Assembly (NCBI GenBank): GCA_018267285.1
Contig: JAFDYU010000006.1
Span: 14,194-78,193, forward strand
DNA from: Bacteroidota bacterium
Lineage (GTDB): Bacteria; Bacteroidota; Bacteroidia; Cytophagales; Cyclobacteriaceae
Direction of reading: 5' to 3'
Length of the DNA stretch: 64,000 nt
The notes beneath the pieces are model-generated. The model saw only the letters and a program-made list of their open reading frames with translations, was not told the DNA's origin and did no database searches. The translations under genes and the position numbers were made by a program. Of the stretch, positions 39,401 through 63,847 are shown one piece after another (position 1 is the stretch's first letter; every line of letters starts with the position of its first letter).

Positions 39401-40171
39401 ATGAAAGTTCTAATTCTTGCTGGTGGCTTTGGTACACGCCTTAGTGAAGAGACCGAAGTTCGCCCGAAACCTATGGCTGAGATTGGTGGTAAGCCAATTC
39501 TCTGGCACATTATGAAAATTTACTCACACTATGGATTCAATGAATTTGTGCTGCTCTTGGGCTATAAAGGCTATCAGATAAAAGAATATTTTTTCAACTA
39601 CTATTTGCATCAAAGTGATGTAACGCTTGATCTCAGCACCAACAAGATGGATGTGCATAACAGCAACTCTGAACCATGGAAAATTACTTTGCTGGACACC
39701 GGATTGAATACGATGACCGGTGGCCGCATCAAGCGAGCGAAAGAATACATCAATAAAGAGCCTTTCTTGTTGACATATGGCGATGGTGTCGCTGATGTGA
39801 ACATTGCAAAGACGGTTGATTTTCATAAATCGCACAAGAAACTGCTTACGATGACCTCCGTGCAACCAGAGGGAAGATTTGGAGCGCTGTCTTTCGGTGC
39901 ATCTGATAAGGTTGATGCATTTATGGAGAAACCCAAGGGCGATGGTTCGTGGATTAATGGTGGATTCTTTGTATGTCAACCGGAAGTCATGAATTACATT
40001 GCAGGGGATGAAACGATATTTGAAAGAGAACCTCTGGAGCGTATGGCTTCGGAAGGGCAACTGTATTCGTACAAGCACGAGGGTTTCTGGAAATGCATGG
40101 ACACGCTACGCGATAAAAATCAATTAAATGAACTGTGGGATAGCAAAAACCCTAAATGGAAAGTATGGTAG
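39401..40171 (+). CDS. rfbF: Glucose-1-phosphate cytidylyltransferase
   Basis: MKVLILAGGFGTRLSEETEVRPKPMAEIGGKPILWHIMKIYSHYG…, WINGGFFV and FWKCMDTLRDK. Confidence 0.9.
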   Translation: MKVLILAGGFGTRLSEETEVRPKPMAEIGGKPILWHIMKIYSHYGFNEFVLLLGYKGYQIKEYFFNYYLHQSDVTLDLSTNKMDVHNSNSEPWKITLLDTGLNTMTGGRIKRAKEYINKEPFLLTYGDGVADVNIAKTVDFHKSHKKLLTMTSVQPEGRFGALSFGASDKVDAFMEKPKGDGSWINGGFFVCQPEVMNYIAGDETIFEREPLERMASEGQLYSYKHEGFWKCMDTLRDKNQLNELWDSKNPKWKVW

Positions 40172-41271
40172 GCTTTGGTAATGTTTTCGCGAACAAGAAA
40201 GTAATAGTTACGGGCAACACTGGCTTCAAAGGAGCGTGGCTAACGGTGTGGCTCTTGAAATTGGGAGCAAAGGTAGTGGGAATTTCCAAAGATGTTCCTA
40301 CCAGTCCATCTATGTTTGGAGTGCTTGACCTGAAAAACAAAATCAAGCACTACGAGAAAGATATCCGCGATATCGAGACGATGAAAAAAATTTTTGATAG
40401 CGAGAAGCCAGATTTTGTTTTCCATTTGGCTGCCCAACCAATTGTTTCTGAATCGTATACCAACCCCATTGAGACAATCACAAGTAATGTAGTAGGCACC
40501 GCGAATATTCTTGAAGCACTGCGCGGATTGAAAAACCGTTGCAATGCCGTGATCATCACGAGCGATAAGTGTTATGATAACGTGGAGTGGACCTGGGGTT
40601 ATCGCGAGAACGACCCTTTGGGAGGAAAAGATCCTTATAGCGCATCAAAAGGCGGAGCGGAGCTAATGGTGAAAACTTATTTCCATTCTTTCTTTTCAAA
40701 ACCGGAAAGTAATATCAAGTTGGTATCAGTGCGGGCGGGTAATGTGATTGGTGGTGGCGATTGGGCGGTAAATAGAATTGTGCCCGATTGCATTCGAGCG
40801 TGGGTTCAGAATAAACCTGTGGAACTAAGGAATCCAAATGCTACGCGCCCATGGCAACACGTACTCGAACCGCTGAGTGGCTATTTGCGAAGCGCACAGC
40901 AACTTGCACAAACTCCTGATAAGGGCCATGGTGAGGCATATAATTTTGGGCCTAACGCAGACCAAAGTCATACCGTGTTTGAGCTTCTTAAAGAAATGTC
41001 TACTTATTGGAAATCGAATGAGCTAAATGAGTACTTCATATTGAACGAAGTCAAGAATTTCCACGAAGCAGGGCTACTGAAGTTGAATTGCGATAAAGCT
41101 TTGCACGACATGAGATGGAAGCCTGTATTTAATTTTAATCAAGCAGCCGAGTTCACAGCGTTGTGGTACATTCAATTTTATTCTAAGTCTGCTATTTTTG
41201 ATTTTACACAGCAGCAGATAACTGAGTATACACGCATTGCAGCAACGAAAAACTTGTCGTGGGCCCAATGA
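40156..41271 (+). CDS. rfbG: CDP-glucose 4,6-dehydratase
   Basis: KKVIVTGNTGFKGAWLTVWL, SDKCY and YSASKGGAEL, at 371 aa. Confidence 0.9.
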   Translation: MESMVGFGNVFANKKVIVTGNTGFKGAWLTVWLLKLGAKVVGISKDVPTSPSMFGVLDLKNKIKHYEKDIRDIETMKKIFDSEKPDFVFHLAAQPIVSESYTNPIETITSNVVGTANILEALRGLKNRCNAVIITSDKCYDNVEWTWGYRENDPLGGKDPYSASKGGAELMVKTYFHSFFSKPESNIKLVSVRAGNVIGGGDWAVNRIVPDCIRAWVQNKPVELRNPNATRPWQHVLEPLSGYLRSAQQLAQTPDKGHGEAYNFGPNADQSHTVFELLKEMSTYWKSNELNEYFILNEVKNFHEAGLLKLNCDKALHDMRWKPVFNFNQAAEFTALWYIQFYSKSAIFDFTQQQITEYTRIAATKNLSWAQ

Positions 41272-56658: not shown

Positions 56659-57792
56659 GTGAGAACCTGGATCCGACATTCGATATCTTTTATAGAAAAT
56701 GAAAAATCAGGAGGTGTTCTATTGCTGGCCTGCACGATCTTTTCGTTAACATTAGCCAATAGCCAGACTGGAAGTGGTTACACTCATTTTTGGCACACGA
56801 ATTTTTTTTCTAAGCCTCTTGAATTTTGGGTCAATGAGGTATTGATGTCTTTTTTCTTTTTACTGGTAGGCTTAGAGATTAAGCGCGAAATTTTTGTAGG
56901 TGAGCTAAACGATTTTAAGAAGTCAGTTTTGCCGGTGCTTGCTGCATTTGGTGGTATGTTGCTGCCGGCTTTAATTCATTTTGTGTTCAATCACGGCACG
57001 GTAACCCAAAACGGCTACGGTATCCCGATGGCAACGGATATAGCTTTTTCGCTTGGGCTTCTGTCTTTGTTGGGCAAACGAATTCCGCTGTCATCTAAAG
57101 TATTTCTTACCGCATTGGCAATTATTGACGACCTGGGAGCAATCATTATCATTGCGATTTTTTATACCGATCACCTTTCGTTCACACACTTTGGCATGGC
57201 TGCTCTGGTTGCGGCTTCCTTGTTGGTGTTAAATCGGTTACAAGTCTCAAACTCGTTATTTTACCTTGCACTGGGAGGTGCGCTCTGGTATTTTCTTTAT
57301 CGGGCCGGCATCCACCCAACCATTGCGGGCGTTGCGCTAGCTTTTGCCATTCCGCTCGGCACTGGTAACTATAGTTCGTTATCTGCTGTTTGGCAACATC
57401 GGTTACACAAACCGATTACGTTTGTAGTATTGCCCATTTTTGCCATGGCAAATACAGCCATTGTTTTGCCGAATGCGGTTGGCATGGAGCTCCTATCGCA
57501 CAACAGCCTTGGAATATTTTTTGGTTTAGTGCTGGGCAAACCGCTCGGCATTTTTTTGTTTGCTTGGGCTGGTGTAACTCTTGGTTGGTGTGTGCTTCCG
57601 CAGCGTATGCAACTGAAGCACGTGTTTGCGGTGGGTATATTAGCAGGCATTGGGTTTACGATGTCCATATTCATCACCCTGCTTGCTTTTGATGAAACCC
57701 ATCTGGTTGACGAGTCTAAAATGGCTGTACTTTTGGGGTCGTTTGTTTCTGGTACGATCGGGATTTTTGCATTGATGAAGGTTTATCGGTAA
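56659..57792 (+). CDS. nhaA: Na+/H+ antiporter NhaA
   Basis: FIENEKSGGVLLLACTIFSLTLANS, FFLLVGLEIKRE and ALAIIDDLGAIIIIAIFY (the DD motif). GTG start. Confidence 0.88.
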   Translation: MRTWIRHSISFIENEKSGGVLLLACTIFSLTLANSQTGSGYTHFWHTNFFSKPLEFWVNEVLMSFFFLLVGLEIKREIFVGELNDFKKSVLPVLAAFGGMLLPALIHFVFNHGTVTQNGYGIPMATDIAFSLGLLSLLGKRIPLSSKVFLTALAIIDDLGAIIIIAIFYTDHLSFTHFGMAALVAASLLVLNRLQVSNSLFYLALGGALWYFLYRAGIHPTIAGVALAFAIPLGTGNYSSLSAVWQHRLHKPITFVVLPIFAMANTAIVLPNAVGMELLSHNSLGIFFGLVLGKPLGIFLFAWAGVTLGWCVLPQRMQLKHVFAVGILAGIGFTMSIFITLLAFDETHLVDESKMAVLLGSFVSGTIGIFALMKVYR

Positions 57793-57811
57793 AAATTTAA
57801 CTGCACCGATG

Positions 57812-57842
57812 TTTGTAACTTCGTAAACCTTGCTTATTATTG
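57812..57842 (+). promoter_or_regulatory. Candidate Bacteroidetes sigma-A promoter upstream of the THX gene
   Basis: TTTG (57812-57815), a 19-nt spacer, then TATTATTG (57835-57842), one mismatch to TAnnTTTG. Lies 22 nt upstream of the THX ATG. Confidence 0.35.
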
Positions 57843-57863
57843 CCCCATAATTTTTAAACTTCA

Positions 57864-58046
57864 ATGGGACGAGGAGACAAAAAATCTAAAAAAGGCAAGC
57901 GATCGCACGGATCGTATGGTGTGTCGAGAAACAGAAAAAAAATTAAAACTCGTTTAAAGCGCACGGCAAGTAAGAAGCCTTCAGCTTCTAAAAGTGAAAC
58001 CGCAAAACCTAAAGCTCGTAAAACAGCTAAGAAAAAAGAAGAATAA
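57864..58046 (+). CDS. 30S ribosomal protein THX with lysine-rich C-terminal extension
   Basis: The N-terminus MGRGDKKSKKGKRSHGSYGVSRNRKK follows the Thermus/Bacteroidetes THX pattern MGKGD(R/K)4GK…G(T/S)YG..R.RKK. Confidence 0.8.
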   Translation: MGRGDKKSKKGKRSHGSYGVSRNRKKIKTRLKRTASKKPSASKSETAKPKARKTAKKKEE

Positions 58047-58049
58047 CAC

Positions 58050-58121
58050 ATGAATAAAATCTCTGCAAATGCATGGTGGTGGTACAGATCATTTTTTGAT
58101 CGGTGTCCGGCTATGCCTTAG
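58050..58121 (+). CDS. trp operon leader peptide (23 codons, three consecutive Trp codons)
   Basis: ATG at 58050, MNKISANAWWWYRSFFDRCPAMP, TAG at 58119. TGG TGG TGG at 58074-58082. Followed by a terminator directly upstream of trpE. Confidence 0.7.
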   Translation: MNKISANAWWWYRSFFDRCPAMP

Positions 58122-58146
58122 TGGAAGGTAATTACGATAAAATCAG

Positions 58147-58178
58147 AAGCCCGCCCGATCATTCGAGCGGGCTTTTTT
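58147..58178 (+). terminator. Rho-independent terminator / trp attenuator
   Basis: AAGCCCGC (58147-58154) pairs with GCGGGCTT (58167-58174). The stem is extendable by CGA/TCG around a TCAT tetraloop. A T-run runs through 58178, about 20 nt before the trpE ATG. Confidence 0.8.
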
Positions 58179-58197
58179 ATTTAAAACCATTAAAGGA

Positions 58198-59574
58198 ATG
58201 AAATACAAATTACATACTTATCAAAAAAAGATTCTGGCCGATACACTAACCCCCGTGAATATTTATTTAAAACTCCGCGATGAGTTCATGGGCAGTATTT
58301 TACTCGAAAGTTCCGATTATCACGGACGCGAAAACAGCCTTTCTTTTATTTGCTGCCAGCCAATTGCCTCGCTCGAACTGAAGCGTGATGAAATAGAGCT
58401 TAAATACCCGGACAGCTCATCTAAAAAAATTAAACTTTTAAATAATCGGTTGGAATCGGTTATCGATGAATTTAGAAACTCGTTCGAACTCGATACGCCC
58501 GAGCCACGATTCGGGTTGTTCGGGTACACTGCCTTCGATGCAATCCGTTTTTTCGAGAACGTGGAGATATCCAAACACCAGGATGCGATTCCGGATATGT
58601 TATATAAACTCTACCGGTATGTTATTGTTATCGATCATTTTTCGAACGAAATGACTTTGCTCGAATTTACGGATGGAACCAACACGCTCGATCGGATTGA
58701 GCAACTGATTTTGAGTAACAAGTTTTCTACGTTCAAATTCTACACAACTGGTGAAGAACAATCTAATCTCACCGATGATGATTTTATGAAAATGGTAGAA
58801 AAGGGTAAAGAACATTGTTTTCGGGGTGATGTATTCCAGATTGTATTGTCACGCAGGTTTTCGGTTTCATTTAAAGGGGATGAATTTAATGTATATCGGG
58901 CGCTGAGGTCGATCAATCCATCGCCCTACTTGTTTTATTTCGACTACGGAAATTTTAAACTTTTTGGTTCTTCACCCGAAGCTCAGTTGCAGATAAAAAA
59001 TAACGAGGCGTTCATTTATCCGATAGCCGGAACATTCCGCAGGAGCGGAAGTGATGAAGAAGATGCGGCCTTAGCCGAGCGGCTTGCTGCCGATGAGAAA
59101 GAGAATGCTGAACACGTGATGCTCGTAGATCTGGCCCGAAACGACATGAGCCGCCATGCCGATCAGGTGAAAGTTAACGTTTTCAAAGAAATACAGTTTT
59201 ACTCGCACGTGATACACTTGGTTTCTAAGGTGTCTGGAAAACTACTGAAAGGTTCGTCTGTTGTACGGATGTTTACCGGCACATTCCCGGCCGGAACACT
59301 CTCGGGTGCACCTAAAGTGATGGCCATGAACCTGATTAACAAATACGAAAACATCAACCGCAGTTTTTATGGTGGAGCAATCGGTATGATTGGCTTTGAT
59401 GGTTCGCTAAACAAAGCGATTATGATCCGAACATTCTTAAGTAAGAACAATCAATTGATTTTCCAAGCAGGCAGTGGAATCGTCTCAAGGTCGGTAAAAG
59501 AAAACGAACTCCAAGAAGTGAGCAATAAACTGGCTGCCTTACGCAGAGCCATTAAACAAGCAGAACAAATTTAA
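58198..59574 (+). CDS. trpE: Anthranilate synthase component I
   Basis: 458 aa with LLESSDYHG, SPEAQLQ, GTFPAGTLSGAPK and GGAIGMIGFDG motifs. Confidence 0.92.
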   Translation: MKYKLHTYQKKILADTLTPVNIYLKLRDEFMGSILLESSDYHGRENSLSFICCQPIASLELKRDEIELKYPDSSSKKIKLLNNRLESVIDEFRNSFELDTPEPRFGLFGYTAFDAIRFFENVEISKHQDAIPDMLYKLYRYVIVIDHFSNEMTLLEFTDGTNTLDRIEQLILSNKFSTFKFYTTGEEQSNLTDDDFMKMVEKGKEHCFRGDVFQIVLSRRFSVSFKGDEFNVYRALRSINPSPYLFYFDYGNFKLFGSSPEAQLQIKNNEAFIYPIAGTFRRSGSDEEDAALAERLAADEKENAEHVMLVDLARNDMSRHADQVKVNVFKEIQFYSHVIHLVSKVSGKLLKGSSVVRMFTGTFPAGTLSGAPKVMAMNLINKYENINRSFYGGAIGMIGFDGSLNKAIMIRTFLSKNNQLIFQAGSGIVSRSVKENELQEVSNKLAALRRAIKQAEQI

Positions 59575-59576
59575 TT

Positions 59577-60143
59577 ATGAAAATACTGGTATTAGACAAC
59601 TACGATTCGTTTACGTACAACCTGGTGCACATCCTTCGCGAGCTCGGGCATCAACCGGATGTATTTAGAAACGATCAGATTGATGTTGCAGAAGTTGCGC
59701 GGTACGATAAAATATTAATTTCACCTGGGCCGGGAATCCCGGATGAGGCCGGCATTATGAAACAGCTTATACACAGCTACGCTGCTACAAAAAGCATTTT
59801 GGGAATTTGTCTGGGGCATCAAGGTATTGCCGAATCTTTTGGAGCTCAACTCTACAACCTACCCAATGTATTGCATGGAGTTACTTCGATAACGAAAGTC
59901 ATCGATTCAAAAGAAAAACTCTTCACGGGTGTTGCAGTAAATTTTCAAACTACCCATTACCATTCGTGGGCAGTAAAACCGGAAACCATTCCCCCTGAAT
60001 TGAACGTTACAGCCGTAAACGATGATGGCCTGATTATGGGGTTGAGCCATATTCACTACGATGTGAAAGGATTACAGTTTCACCCCGAGTCGGTGATGAC
60101 AACCGAAGGGCCTAAAATAATTTCGAATTGGTTAAAAAACTGA
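59577..60143 (+). CDS. trpG: Anthranilate synthase component II (glutamine amidotransferase)
   Basis: ILVLDNYDSFTYNLV, ILGICLGHQ and LQFHPES. 188 aa. Confidence 0.9.
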   Translation: MKILVLDNYDSFTYNLVHILRELGHQPDVFRNDQIDVAEVARYDKILISPGPGIPDEAGIMKQLIHSYAATKSILGICLGHQGIAESFGAQLYNLPNVLHGVTSITKVIDSKEKLFTGVAVNFQTTHYHSWAVKPETIPPELNVTAVNDDGLIMGLSHIHYDVKGLQFHPESVMTTEGPKIISNWLKN

Positions 60144-60227: not shown

Positions 60228-61211
60228 GTGAAAAAAATACTTAGTGAATTAATCGAGCATCGATCCTTGAGCAAGGAAACAGCGCGACAAGTGTTGATCG
60301 ATTTGGCTTCGGGTAAATTCAATCCTAGCCAGGTTTCATCGTTTATAACGGTGTACATGATGCGCGGTGTTACACTTGATGAGCTTGCCGGCTTTCGCGA
60401 TGCCATGCTGGAGCTGTGTGTGCCCGTTTCATTCGATCAGCCCGTGATGGACTTGTGCGGTACCGGAGGCGATGCAAAAAATACGTTTAATATCTCAACA
60501 CTTTCATCGTTTGTGGTGGCCGCAGCTGGTCAGCCTGTGGCCAAACACGGCAACTATGGGGTTTCTTCGCTCTCCGGTTCCTCCAATGTTATGGAGTATT
60601 TTGGGTATCGGTTTACAAACGATGTTGACGAACTGAAGAAATCATTGGAGCGGGCAAACATTTGTTTTATGCACGCACCTTTGTTTCACCCCGCAATGAA
60701 AAACGTTGCACCGATTCGAAAAGAACTGGGTGTAAAAACATTTTTTAACATGCTCGGACCAATGGTAAACCCCGCTTTCCCGAAGATACAACTGGTGGGC
60801 GTTTTTAATTTAGAGCTTGCACGTCAATATGCTTACTTATATCAGCAAACCGAGAAACAGTTTGTGATCGTACATTCGGTGGACGGCTATGATGAAGTTT
60901 CGTTGACAAGCCCGACAAAAGTTTTTTTTAACGGGGGTGAGTTGTTGCTCGAACCCGAAGATGTTAAAATGAAATTATTGCCAGACGATTTGCGGGGAGG
61001 GGATTCGGTTGAAGAATCGGCAACTATTTTTATGCGAATTTTAGAAGGCAAGGGTACAAGCCAACAAAATGCAGCCGTTATTGCCAATGCCGGAATGGCC
61101 TTGTTTTGCGCAAATCAAAACAAAGAGTTGAACACTTGTTTACTTAAAGCGGAAGAAGCACTTGAATCCGGGAAAGCGTTAAAAGCATTTAAGCAGTTGC
61201 TCAGTAAATAA
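60228..61211 (+). CDS. trpD: Anthranilate phosphoribosyltransferase
   Basis: MDLCGTGGDAKNTFNIST, VAKHGN and LGPMVNP. GTG start. Confidence 0.9.
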   Translation: MKKILSELIEHRSLSKETARQVLIDLASGKFNPSQVSSFITVYMMRGVTLDELAGFRDAMLELCVPVSFDQPVMDLCGTGGDAKNTFNISTLSSFVVAAAGQPVAKHGNYGVSSLSGSSNVMEYFGYRFTNDVDELKKSLERANICFMHAPLFHPAMKNVAPIRKELGVKTFFNMLGPMVNPAFPKIQLVGVFNLELARQYAYLYQQTEKQFVIVHSVDGYDEVSLTSPTKVFFNGGELLLEPEDVKMKLLPDDLRGGDSVEESATIFMRILEGKGTSQQNAAVIANAGMALFCANQNKELNTCLLKAEEALESGKALKAFKQLLSK

Positions 61212-61219
61212 GATTGCCA

Positions 61220-62011
61220 ATGAATATTTTAGAAAAAATAGTGCTGAAGAAGAAAACAGAAATTACTGACCGGAAAGCGTCCGCACCGATTAATGTTTTG
61301 GAAAAGAGCTCATTGTTTAAAAGAAAAACGGTTTCCTTGAAGCATGCTCTTCAGAATGGTAGGCATGGTATCATTGCTGAATTCAAAAGAAAATCTCCAT
61401 CCAAAGGAATTATCAATTCGATGGCATCTGTTAGAAATGTTACAAACGGTTATGTTCAGGCCGGGGCAAGTGCTTTATCCGTACTTACGGATGAAGAGTT
61501 TTTTGGTGGCAGCAATCAAGATTTAGTTACTGCAAGAAAATCTAATTCATGCCCGATACTTCGAAAAGATTTTATTATTGATGAATATCAGATTGTTGAA
61601 GCCAAGGCCATTGGGGCGGATGTGATCTTGTTAATTGCCGCAATATTAACACCGCAACAAGTAAAGAGCTTTAGCATCTTAGCCGGCTCGCTTGGCCTCG
61701 AAGTTTTGCTTGAAATCCATGACGAAGAAGAATTGAAAGCAAATTATGATTCTAATATTGGATTGATAGGTGTAAACAACCGAAATTTAAAAACCTTCGA
61801 AGTGGATGTAGAAAATTCGAAAAAGCTTTCGGAACTCATTCCCAAAGGAGCAGCCCGAATTTCCGAGAGCGGAATTAATTCCCCCAACACCATCATCGAA
61901 TTAAGAAAGTTTGGTTTTAAAGGTTTTTTGATGGGCGAAAATTTTATGAAACATCCTAATCCGGTAGTGGCAGCAAATGATTTTTTCACAAAACTCTCCG
62001 AACTGTCATGA
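61220..62011 (+). CDS. trpC: Indole-3-glycerol phosphate synthase
   Basis: IIAEFKRKSPSKG, LSVLTDEEFFGGS, ILRKDFIIDEYQI and GVNNRNL. Confidence 0.9.
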   Translation: MNILEKIVLKKKTEITDRKASAPINVLEKSSLFKRKTVSLKHALQNGRHGIIAEFKRKSPSKGIINSMASVRNVTNGYVQAGASALSVLTDEEFFGGSNQDLVTARKSNSCPILRKDFIIDEYQIVEAKAIGADVILLIAAILTPQQVKSFSILAGSLGLEVLLEIHDEEELKANYDSNIGLIGVNNRNLKTFEVDVENSKKLSELIPKGAARISESGINSPNTIIELRKFGFKGFLMGENFMKHPNPVVAANDFFTKLSELS

Positions 62012-62634
62012 ACAAGTTGAAAGTAAAAATCTGCGGAATGCGAGACCCAACAAATATTCTGGAAGTGGCCTCACTCGCTCCCGATTTTATGGGGTTTATT
62101 TTTTATGAAAAATCGAAACGATACGTGGGCAAAGATTTTAAAATACCCGAACTATTTCCTTCCGTTATAAAAAAAATTGGCGTGTTTGTTAATCAATCAA
62201 TAGACGAAATAGCTTTGCTGGCCAAGAAACATTCGCTTGATTACGCCCAACTACACGGAAATGAATCGGCTGATTTTTGCTTCAAGCTGAAAAATAAAAT
62301 TAAAGTGATTAAAGCTTTTTTAATCGATGAATCTTTTGATTTTTCGGAAACGGAAAAATACTGCAGTGTAGATTATTTTCTCTTCGATTCTAAATCTACC
62401 GACTATGGAGGTTCCGGTAAAACATTTGATTGGAACTTATTGCATAAGTTCCATGGCAATACACCGTTTTTCTTAAGTGGAGGTTTATCTGTCGAGAATC
62501 TCACTGACTTAAAAAAAATTCCTAATGCCAACTTTTACGCAATAGACATCAACAGTAAGGCCGAATCGGTCCCTGTCCTAAAAGACATGAATATTCTACA
62601 CTCGATGTTTAAAACATTAAACAATAATTCTTGA
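62008..62634 (+). CDS. trpF: Phosphoribosylanthranilate isomerase
   Basis: KVKICGMRD (catalytic Cys), QLHGNE, FLFDS…GGSGKTFDW and FLSGGL. ATGA overlap with trpC. Confidence 0.88.
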
Positions 62635-62650
62635 TTTTAATTCTTTCATC

Positions 62651-63847
62651 ATGAAATACACAGTTGATAAACGAGGCTACTATGGAAACTTTGGAGGTGC
62701 ATATATTCCTGAAATGCTTTACCCAAATGTAGAAGAACTCAGGTCTAAATATGAGCAGATTATCGAATCTGATGATTTCCAAAGAGAATTTATGCATCTG
62801 CTAAAAAATTACGTAGGTAGGCCAACTCCCTTGTTTTTAGCCAAACGCCTTTCAGAAAAACACAATGCTACCATTTATTTAAAACGCGAAGATCTTTGCC
62901 ACACCGGTGCGCACAAAATTAACAACACCATTGGGCAAATTTTGCTCGCCAAAAAATTAGGCAAGCAAAAAATCATTGCCGAAACAGGTGCCGGGCAACA
63001 TGGAGTGGCCACAGCAACAGTTTGCGCACTCATGGGCATGGAGTGTGTAGTATACATGGGGCAACTCGACATGGAACGGCAGCGGCCTAACGTAGAACGA
63101 ATGGCTATTCTCGGGGCAAAAGTTGTTCCGGCTACGTCAGGCAAAATGACTTTGAAAGATGCAACCAACGAAGCCATGCGCCACTGGATAAACCACCCGG
63201 TGGATACGCATTACATTATCGGCTCGGTTGTAGGGCCACATCCTTACCCCGACATGGTGGCCAAGTTTCAATCGGTGATTAGCGATGAAATAAAAAAACA
63301 ACTGACAGAGGAAACAGGCAATCCTTTTCCCGATTATGTAATTGCTTGCGTGGGGGGTGGCAGCAACGCGGCTGGTGCGTTTTATCATTTTCTCAACCAT
63401 GAGCATGTAAAATTGATCGGTGTGGAAGCAGCCGGCAAAGGTGTGGATACGAACGAGTCAGCGGCCACTACAGTGCTTGGAAAAATTGGAATCCTTCACG
63501 GCAGTAAATCACTTTTAATGCAAACAGGCGATGGGCAGGTAATTGAACCGTACTCCATTTCGGCAGGGCTTGATTATCCCGGTATCGGCCCTATGCACGC
63601 GCATTTGTTTGAAACCGGGCGAGTTACTTTTTTGAACGCAACCGATGAAGAGGCCATGCAGGCCGGGGTTGAACTGAGCAGGCTCGAAGGAATAATCCCG
63701 GCCATTGAAAGTGCCCATGCCGTTGCTGCGCTCTCGAAACTTGAACTGAATCAGGAAGATGTTGTGGTTATCAATCTTTCGGGGCGTGGAGATAAAGATA
63801 TGGACACGTACATCAAATGGGGAAAATATAAATCGGAAATTTTTTAA
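62651..63847 (+). CDS. trpB: Tryptophan synthase beta chain
   Basis: [10 protein letters not shown], the [14 protein letters not shown]-lysine motif, [10 protein letters not shown] and GGGSNAAG. Confidence 0.95.

Follow-up and report, generated by a model that had tools for sequence, protein, structure and literature searches.

Introduction

The Escherichia coli trp leader, trpL, follows the Yanofsky model of kinetic attenuation: its leader peptide is 14 codons long, contains two Trp codons, and has its stop codon before segment 2. In other phyla trp operons are known to be controlled by alternatives such as the T-box, a TRAP-like protein or a riboswitch. Leader peptides are not confined to the Proteobacteria: experimental support for trp leader peptides in Corynebacterium glutamicum and Streptomyces venezuelae is cited in PMC4833913. 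For the Bacteroidota, Weinberg et al. (2010; PMC2864571) described the 'Bacteroidete tryptophan peptide leader RNA', Bacteroid-trp, which is Rfam family RF01692. It was presented as a presumed peptide leader with at least two UGG codons, found upstream of trpB or trpE, and with 'a loosely conserved hairpin'; a consensus, an antiterminator and an anti-antiterminator were not drawn (PMC2864571). The RF01692 seed includes the Cytophagales C. hutchinsonii, Microscilla and Algoriphagus, and a 2019 paper reported that the trp operon of Flavobacterium psychrophilum is preceded by a Bacteroid-trp element. No experimental study of a Bacteroidota trp leader came to light in the searchable literature. 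An initial annotation of the DNA studied here had held that leader attenuation is 'essentially never annotated' in this phylum; that was overstated, as RF01692 has been available since 2010 with Cytophagales in its seed.

The DNA analysed is a stretch of 64,000 nt, called the window below, from contig JAFDYU010000006.1 of a member of the Cyclobacteriaceae. The part of concern here is the spacer between a gene for ribosomal protein THX and trpE. The genes around that spacer are as follows.

57864 to 58046, + strand: gene for 30S ribosomal protein THX, 60 aa (NCBIfam TIGR04560 ribo_THX, 39.6 bits, cut-off 26)
58198 to 59574, + strand: trpE (Pfam Anth_synt_I_N and Chorismate_bind)
59577 to 60143, + strand: trpG (Pfam GATase)
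60228 to 61211, + strand: trpD (Pfam Glycos_transf_3)
61214 to 62011, + strand: trpC (Pfam IGPS)
62008 to 62634, + strand: trpF (Pfam PRAI)
62651 to 63847, + strand: trpB (Pfam PALP)

A gene for a Na+/H+ antiporter lies upstream of THX, while trpA presumably falls beyond the end of the window.

The leader ORF and its pairing segments

In the spacer the initial annotation had placed a 23-codon ORF running from an ATG at 58050 to a TAG at 58119-58121, with a run of TGG codons at 58074-58082. On rechecking, the ORF coordinates proved exact, with MNKISANAWWWYRSFFDRCPAMP as product, and the sequence has the TGG run at that position. An exact-protein search matched only a Logan metagenome assembly, SRR24111707. 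The leader ORF is missing from the gene calls of the source assembly, and no Shine-Dalgarno sequence precedes it; the Bacteroidota are, to our knowledge, a phylum without Shine-Dalgarno-led initiation. The string TGGTGGTGG occurs twice in the 64-kb window, against 0.38 occurrences expected. Its second copy, at 40749, is irrelevant here, being out of frame within an ORF of 371 codons (40156-41271). Also set aside was an ORF in an alternative frame at 58069-58131 (MHGGGTDHF...), which has no Trp codons; relatives conserve the WWW frame instead. The leader and the segments defined around it are listed below.

58050 to 58121, + strand: leader peptide ORF (trpL-like), with its start, stop and product as given above
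58074 to 58082, + strand: run of three Trp codons (TGG TGG TGG), proposed as the place of sensing
58071 to 58092, + strand: segment 1, the 5' half of the anti-antiterminator, with an outer arm at 58071-58076 (which contains the first Trp codon) and an inner arm at 58082-58092
58096 to 58116, + strand: segment 2, partner of segment 1 or of segment 3, defined by pairing, covariation and folding
58097 to 58103 (TGATCGG), 58105 to 58106 (GT) and 58109 to 58112 (GGCT), + strand: antiterminator arm in segment 2
58146 to 58161, + strand: segment 3, the terminator 5' arm and loop, of which 58148-58161 doubles as the antiterminator 3' arm
58163 to 58182, + strand: segment 4, the terminator 3' arm (58163-58175) with a T-run at 58173-58178 and then 58180-58182

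The terminator spans 58146-58175, with 12 pairs and an energy of about -19.7 to -19.8 kcal/mol according to a consensus scan, a hairpin search and folding. The coordinates first proposed for it hold: AAGCCCGC (58147-58154) pairs with GCGGGCTT (58167-58174), three further pairs (58156-58158 with 58163-58165) close a TCAT loop, and the T-run ends about 20 nt before the trpE ATG at 58198. The antiterminator was also there as proposed, with GATCGGTGTCCGGCT (58098-58112) complementary to AGCCCGCCCGATC (58148-58160), and RNAduplex extends it to 7+2+4 pairs joining 58097-58112 to 58148-58161. This duplex has an energy of -18.2 kcal/mol, and among 200 dinucleotide-shuffled versions of the upstream segment one reached that value. 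The initial inventory of elements was thus right in its ORF, terminator and antiterminator, and it left out segment 1 (58071-58092). Segment 1 pairs with segment 2 through 58082-58092 with 58096-58106 and through 58071-58076 with 58111-58116, and this 1:2 helix alone has an energy of -20.3 kcal/mol. The 1:2 helix is important here, since of segment 2 only the 3' half is covered when a ribosome sits at the stop codon. Computed on the window, the 1:2, 2:3 and 3:4 pairings are mutually exclusive around the shared segment 2, and folding of 58040-58200 gives z = -4.0 relative to shuffles.

Conservation of the leader in related trp loci

A TrpE scan of one genome per GTDB species yielded 80 loci from the Cytophagales, Chitinophagales and Flavobacteriales, and leader counts are based on the 79 of them that have at least 200 nt upstream of trpE. 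The nearest species representatives are Cytophagales, with TrpE identities of at most 70%. It had been suggested with the initial annotation that related spacers be examined for a conserved Trp-codon ORF, and the outcome favours the leader: a short ORF with WW or WWW lies upstream of trpE at 78 of the 79 related loci, against 0 of 79 in the reverse-complement control. The full WWW is kept in 75 of the 79. A mononucleotide shuffle control gave WWW in 1 of 1580 sequences and WW in 17 of 1580. The leader ORFs of the related loci sit 69-219 nt before trpE, and in every leader-bearing locus (78 of 78) a hairpin followed by a T-run is found 19-48 nt past the leader stop.

The leader peptides share a homologous pattern, ...AWWWH.S..D..., and in the Cytophagales they come in two types. 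Type A peptides have at most 18 codons and end in ...AWWWH.S..D[LMW] followed by the stop. Their segment 2 begins 17-20 nt after WWW, and the leader stop falls inside it. Type B peptides, to which that of the window belongs, mostly have 23 codons and end in ...AWWWH.S..DRC.A.. followed by the stop; their segment 2 begins 13-14 nt after WWW, and the leader stop lies just 3' of it.

Covariation of the alternative helices

Covariation was studied in an alignment, A1, of the window with 13 type-B relatives (14 sequences, MAFFT). The antiterminator and the 1:2 helix were scored with explicit structures, because a one-base deletion that the window has in the 5' arm of the terminator shifts its 3' arm in the MAFFT alignment. 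Compensatory changes in the stems, which the initial annotation had named as something to look for, were found in both helices. Of the three helices the strongest covariation is that of the anti-antiterminator formed by segments 1 and 2, in which 86% of cells are paired, 15 cells are changed on both sides, and 0 of 500 shuffles reached the observed covariation score. For the antiterminator (columns 51-66 with 108-122), 86% of cells are likewise paired across the 14 sequences, and all of these sequences keep its core of six pairs (columns 52-57 with 116-121). Sliding the 3' partner by 1-3 columns left at most 51% of cells paired. Within the type-B set, 2 of the 13 antiterminator pairs are changed on both sides; most are invariant or changed on one side.

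Two columns of segment 2 vary together with both of their partners. At column 52 (58098) most sequences have G opposite C41 and C121, and L024, L025 and L031 have A opposite T41 and T121. At column 51 (58097) the window and L032 have T opposite A42 and A122, L022 has A opposite T in both partners, and in L024, L025 and L031 a G faces C in both, so that this column is matched on both sides in 6 of the 14 sequences. A single base that covaries with two alternative partners is the signature of a structural switch. When RNAalifold was applied unaided to the 14 sequences, it recovered only the inner 1:2 hairpin, part of the terminator and a 3-bp hairpin in the UGG run (columns 27-29 with 34-36).

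Segment 2:3 complementarity is preserved across clades whose sequences are unrelated. Type B pairs GATCGG with CCGATC, type-A Cytophagales pair GTGAACAGC with GCTGTTCAC, and loci whose records bear the label Chitinophaga, Bacteroidia or Bacteroidota pair GAGAACGG with CTGTTCTC; in the Flavobacteriales the pairing is CGTGA:TCACG, which is weak.

Folding with a ribosome on the leader

The window RNA was folded with the positions covered by a ribosome masked. When the ribosome was placed on one of the three TGG codons, whichever it was, and the RNA ended at 58163, the antiterminator came out as the minimum-energy fold; this nascent fold containing 2:3 has an energy of -19.7 kcal/mol. With the ribosome at the stop codon (58104-58131 masked), the inner 1:2 hairpin and the terminator form. 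Once the full terminator has been transcribed, the terminator state, at -29.2 kcal/mol or lower, lies below the -19.7 kcal/mol of the nascent antiterminator, even with a stalled ribosome. The comparison of 2:3 with 3:4 energies suggested at the outset therefore has a divided answer, with 2:3 winning in nascent RNA and the terminator winning once it is complete. We reject the idea that the antiterminator competes thermodynamically with the terminator, since the terminator wins at equilibrium. Because the terminator is the more stable structure at equilibrium, control must be kinetic, as in E. coli. As modelled, the attenuator is dependent on the kinetics of co-transcriptional folding, and only its nascent-RNA version works. 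The mask outcomes were identical at 41 of 41 THX-linked loci, in a check made without a shuffled control, where a free segment 3 tends to pair upstream.

Mask folding agrees with the initial proposal that a ribosome stalled on WWW leaves 58098-58112 free to hold the terminator arm. The companion proposal, that a ribosome at the stop codon covers 58098-58112, stood in part: the 3' half is covered, and the GATCGG core is not, being re-captured by segment 1. Shut-off in the 23-codon subtype would accordingly appear, from the folding model, to rely on segment 1 re-pairing with that core. The following cycle is proposed. With ample charged tRNA-Trp, a ribosome would pass WWW and reach the stop codon at 58119, where it would cover the 3' half of segment 2. 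Segment 1 would then re-pair with the GATCGG core behind the ribosome, the 3:4 terminator would form, and transcription would halt about 20 nt before trpE. With scarce tRNA-Trp, the ribosome would stall on 58074-58082 and hold segment 1. The freed segment 2 would pair with segment 3 once segment 3 emerges, and the 2:3 helix would block the terminator, letting RNA polymerase proceed into trpE. Four points of this scheme are inferred: that the leader ORF is translated, that transcription terminates at 58178, that the outcome responds to tryptophan, and that the helices fold in this kinetic order.

Conservation, covariation and folding all support ribosome-mediated trp attenuation as the initial annotation had put it forward. 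The element is very probably a classical ribosome-mediated leader-peptide transcription attenuator of trpEGDCFB(A), and the Cytophagales form of the Bacteroidota tryptophan leader. A different output might follow the same sensing step, with the leader ORF sensing Trp and acting through Rho-dependent polarity, control of trpE translation or mRNA stability. The termination side of the attenuator draws on sequence, and the terminator is only 20 nt from the trpE start, where it might affect initiation. However, a canonical GC-rich stem and U-run are conserved at a fixed distance past the leader stop in all 78 leader-bearing loci, and the trpE start at 58198 is outside all paired segments, and we consider an output other than termination improbable.

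The THX junction

The THX stop codon, TAA at 58044-58046, is separated from the leader ATG by 3 nt. The same arrangement recurs in relatives: a THX gene stands directly before the leader in 40 of 40 assessable Cytophagales relatives as well as in the window, and none was detected within 90 nt upstream in the other 38 leader-bearing loci. In the 40 relatives the leader ATG follows the THX stop at a median distance of 3 nt, and in 36 of them this distance lies between -1 and 12 nt; two large gaps (64 and 90 nt) accompany truncated THX frames. Cultured organisms are found among the THX-linked relatives, namely Parachryseolinea silvisoli (L018) and Dawidia cretensis (L019). A promoter-like motif lies upstream of THX.

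57835 to 57842, + strand: promoter-like Bacteroidota -7 motif TATTATTG (fits TAnn[ACT]TTG), 29 nt upstream of the THX ATG

This motif overlaps a sigma-70-like match at 57813-57840. All 40 THX-linked relatives, like the window, have a TAnn[ACT]TTG motif 24-34 nt ahead of the THX ATG, and in none of these 41 loci does one occur from the THX start to the leader ATG. The exact form TAnnTTTG was found within 80 nt upstream of the leader ATG in 0 of the 40 THX-linked loci versus 32 of the 38 other leader-bearing loci. The motif at 57835 may be taken as the promoter of a THX-trpL-trp transcript, and it is likely that the attenuator has no promoter of its own and is co-transcribed with THX. With only 20 nt between terminator and trpE and 3 nt between THX and leader, trpE is reachable only by read-through.

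The close association with THX invites another reading, in which the hairpin and T-run are a plain THX terminator, the WWW ORF arose by chance or has no function, and regulation of the trp operon is achieved by other means. THX ends just before the ORF, the window has no other terminator between THX and trpE, and the attenuator terminator probably does end THX transcripts as well. Yet a plain terminator would leave unexplained a WWW ORF that is kept in 75 of 79 relatives, among which are also the 38 leader-bearing loci without THX upstream, and it does not account for the covariation of segments 1, 2 and 3. In addition, the 20 nt from T-run to trpE have no room for an independent promoter, so that trpE expression needs regulated read-through. 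We regard this reading as very improbable and keep to the attenuator.

If the attenuator is co-transcribed with THX, ribosomes might also pass from one frame to the other. The tight stop-start spacing suggests coupling of THX and leader translation by termination and reinitiation, and it is equally possible that ribosomes initiate independently on the leader, at the A-rich 3' end of THX. We put forward only tentatively, and would lean somewhat against, the full reading of the junction as a fusion within one Cytophagales clade, in which the leader's promoter has been lost, THX is co-transcribed, the terminator is shared and the THX ribosome functionally re-initiates on the leader. If it were true, the re-initiating THX ribosome would already trail RNA polymerase, solving the synchrony of transcription and translation in a phylum without Shine-Dalgarno-led starts; the promoter of a ribosomal-protein gene would drive the trp operon, with attenuation as its sole gate. 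A literature search found no paper linking THX with tryptophan. The THX junction is the only part of the locus that is a possible new variant.

Relation to the Bacteroid-trp family

RF01692 gave no match on 57700-58400 even at E <= 10, and a search of the whole window with Rfam at gathering threshold gave 0 matches. The gathering score of RF01692 is 49 bits; the window scores below it and so lies outside the family as operationally defined. At that score the model also found 0 of the 13 Cytophagales or Chitinophaga-labelled loci tested. It scores 58-81 bits on four Flavobacteriales loci, L047, L058, L063 and L079. A covariance model, R1, was built from the 13 type-B Cytophagales relatives with the window excluded. 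R1 matched the window end to end over 58050-58183 (92.2 bits, E about 1e-22), found leaders in 65 of 67 other loci, and scored 33-43 bits at the RF01692 sites of the four Flavobacteriales loci. Judged by these models, the window element is of the same kind as Bacteroid-trp, to which it is linked via intermediates, and it is a non-member by Rfam's operational definition.

Permissive Rfam searches of 57700-58400 returned RsaE, PyrR, Trp_leader (21.6 bits) and a trpB motif (20.5 bits); these were discarded as sub-threshold matches driven by the terminator or the Trp codons. That the spacer is read in trans, by uncharged tRNA-Trp (T-box), a TRAP-like protein or a riboswitch ligand, is scarcely credible, as nothing specific speaks for it and no T-box or riboswitch family matched, either on 57700-58400 at E <= 10 or in the whole window at gathering threshold. 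Moreover, what is conserved is an ATG...WWW...stop ORF read in frame and not a binding platform, and the conserved positions of WWW and stop relative to segment 2 fit only a ribosome.

Comparison with known systems

The mechanism is a textbook one and the class is already in Rfam, so that the attenuator confirms rather than surprises. The present analysis extends the long-predicted Bacteroidota tryptophan leader class to a clade that the Rfam model misses. It also gives a four-segment model, with covariation for the anti-antiterminator and the antiterminator and a conserved terminator, that was lacking in the 2010 description. R1 or an equivalent model could serve to annotate such leaders in genomes of the Cytophagales and Chitinophagales, in which they now go unseen. 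In the THX fusion the leader starts a few nucleotides past a highly expressed ORF, which could show how the coupling of ribosome and polymerase that attenuation needs arises in a phylum without Shine-Dalgarno initiation.

Bacteroid-trp is the closest of the described systems. The window element shares its phylum and its position upstream of trpE, and like it has an ORF containing consecutive UGG codons (three) and an intrinsic terminator. It differs in having the THX gene upstream, whereas several seed sequences have a TAnnTTTG box before the leader ATG, and in that three helices are defined and supported here. The likeness to E. coli trpL (RF00513, Trp_leader) is one of design: both have tandem Trp codons in segment 1, alternative 1:2, 2:3 and 3:4 pairings, an intrinsic terminator, and kinetic control with the terminator thermodynamically favoured. 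There is no detectable sequence homology, the Trp_leader model giving E = 0.08 for its 21.6 bits on the window against a gathering score of 41, and the window element is an analogue, not a member, of RF00513. In contrast to E. coli trpL, the window has three Trp codons, 23 codons and a stop 3' of the antiterminator core; its leader start codon is 3 nt past the upstream gene, it lacks a Shine-Dalgarno sequence, and no repressor or operator is evident. The actinobacterial trp leaders of C. glutamicum and S. venezuelae are independent cases of attenuation through Trp codons, but they belong to a different phylum and are unrelated in sequence.

For the THX junction a parallel is the E. coli pheM leader, which lies directly downstream of rplT (L20) and receives read-through transcription from it. 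There, pheST can also be transcribed from a promoter of its own, and a terminator belonging to rplT precedes pheM. In the window, by contrast, the gap is 3 nt, with no promoter motif and no separate terminator for THX. What the two loci have in common is an amino-acid leader-peptide attenuator that adjoins a ribosomal-protein gene.

Gene arrangement upstream of the leader

The THX-leader arrangement was scored for the window and for related trpE loci L001-L037, L050, L052, L054 and L056. In all 40 assessable Cytophagales relatives, the stop codon of THX, a 30S ribosomal protein gene, precedes the trp leader ATG, with a median gap of 3 nt, and the window is alike (57864-58050). A search for a promoter motif from the THX start to the leader ATG found none in the window or the 40 Cytophagales relatives. 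The Bacteroidota promoter box TAnnTTTG lies shortly 5' of the leader in 32 of the 38 leader-bearing loci that lack THX. Upstream of the leader in two relatives, L008 and L015, the THX frame is shortened to 45 and 26 codons, at a distance from the leader of 64 and 90 nt, respectively. Leader and terminator are intact in both. The shortened frame could be due to a frameshift in MAG assembly or to genuine decay of THX.

Among loci with full upstream sequence, the sole case without a WW-containing short ORF is L065, a MAG labelled Chitinophaga pinensis. The stretch scored there is the 400 nt upstream of trpE, and R1, the covariance model built from 13 type-B relatives, has no match in it. This locus may have another regulator or an altered gene order.

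Other RNA signals and Trp-codon runs

No Rfam family reached gathering score across the 64 kb window. In three relatives, Bacteroidales_small_SRP RNA (RF04183) was found at 72-78 bits, 1.6-2.4 kb 5' of the leader:

L011, 1137-1239: Bacteroidales_small_SRP (RF04183)
L024, 441-543: Bacteroidales_small_SRP (RF04183)
L050, 1168-1272, minus strand: Bacteroidales_small_SRP (RF04183)

The Trp-codon run TGGTGGTGG recurs just once elsewhere in the window, at 40749-40757, and was ruled out as a second leader, being out of frame within ORF 40156-41271.

The terminator hairpin (58147-58174) also scores as terminator-like on the minus strand, with the tail CTGATTTTAT, and R1 gives a weak reverse-strand match at 58138-58215. 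Given that no convergent gene is present, these minus-strand signals are probably nothing more than stem symmetry.

Within the multiloop of the antiterminator fold there is a small hairpin, UGCCUU-AGUGG-AAGGUA (58114-58128), that includes the leader stop UAG.

The codon after WWW

In nearly all Cytophagales leaders the residue following the three Trp codons (WWW) is His (CAC or CAT), while in the window it is Tyr (TAC, 58083-58085; columns 34-36 of A1, the alignment of the window with the 13 type-B relatives). Because two of the codon's three bases pair with segment 2 (58096-58116) through A1 columns 34-59 and 36-57, pairs that are maintained via G-U, the "conserved His" may reflect a constraint on the RNA rather than on the peptide.
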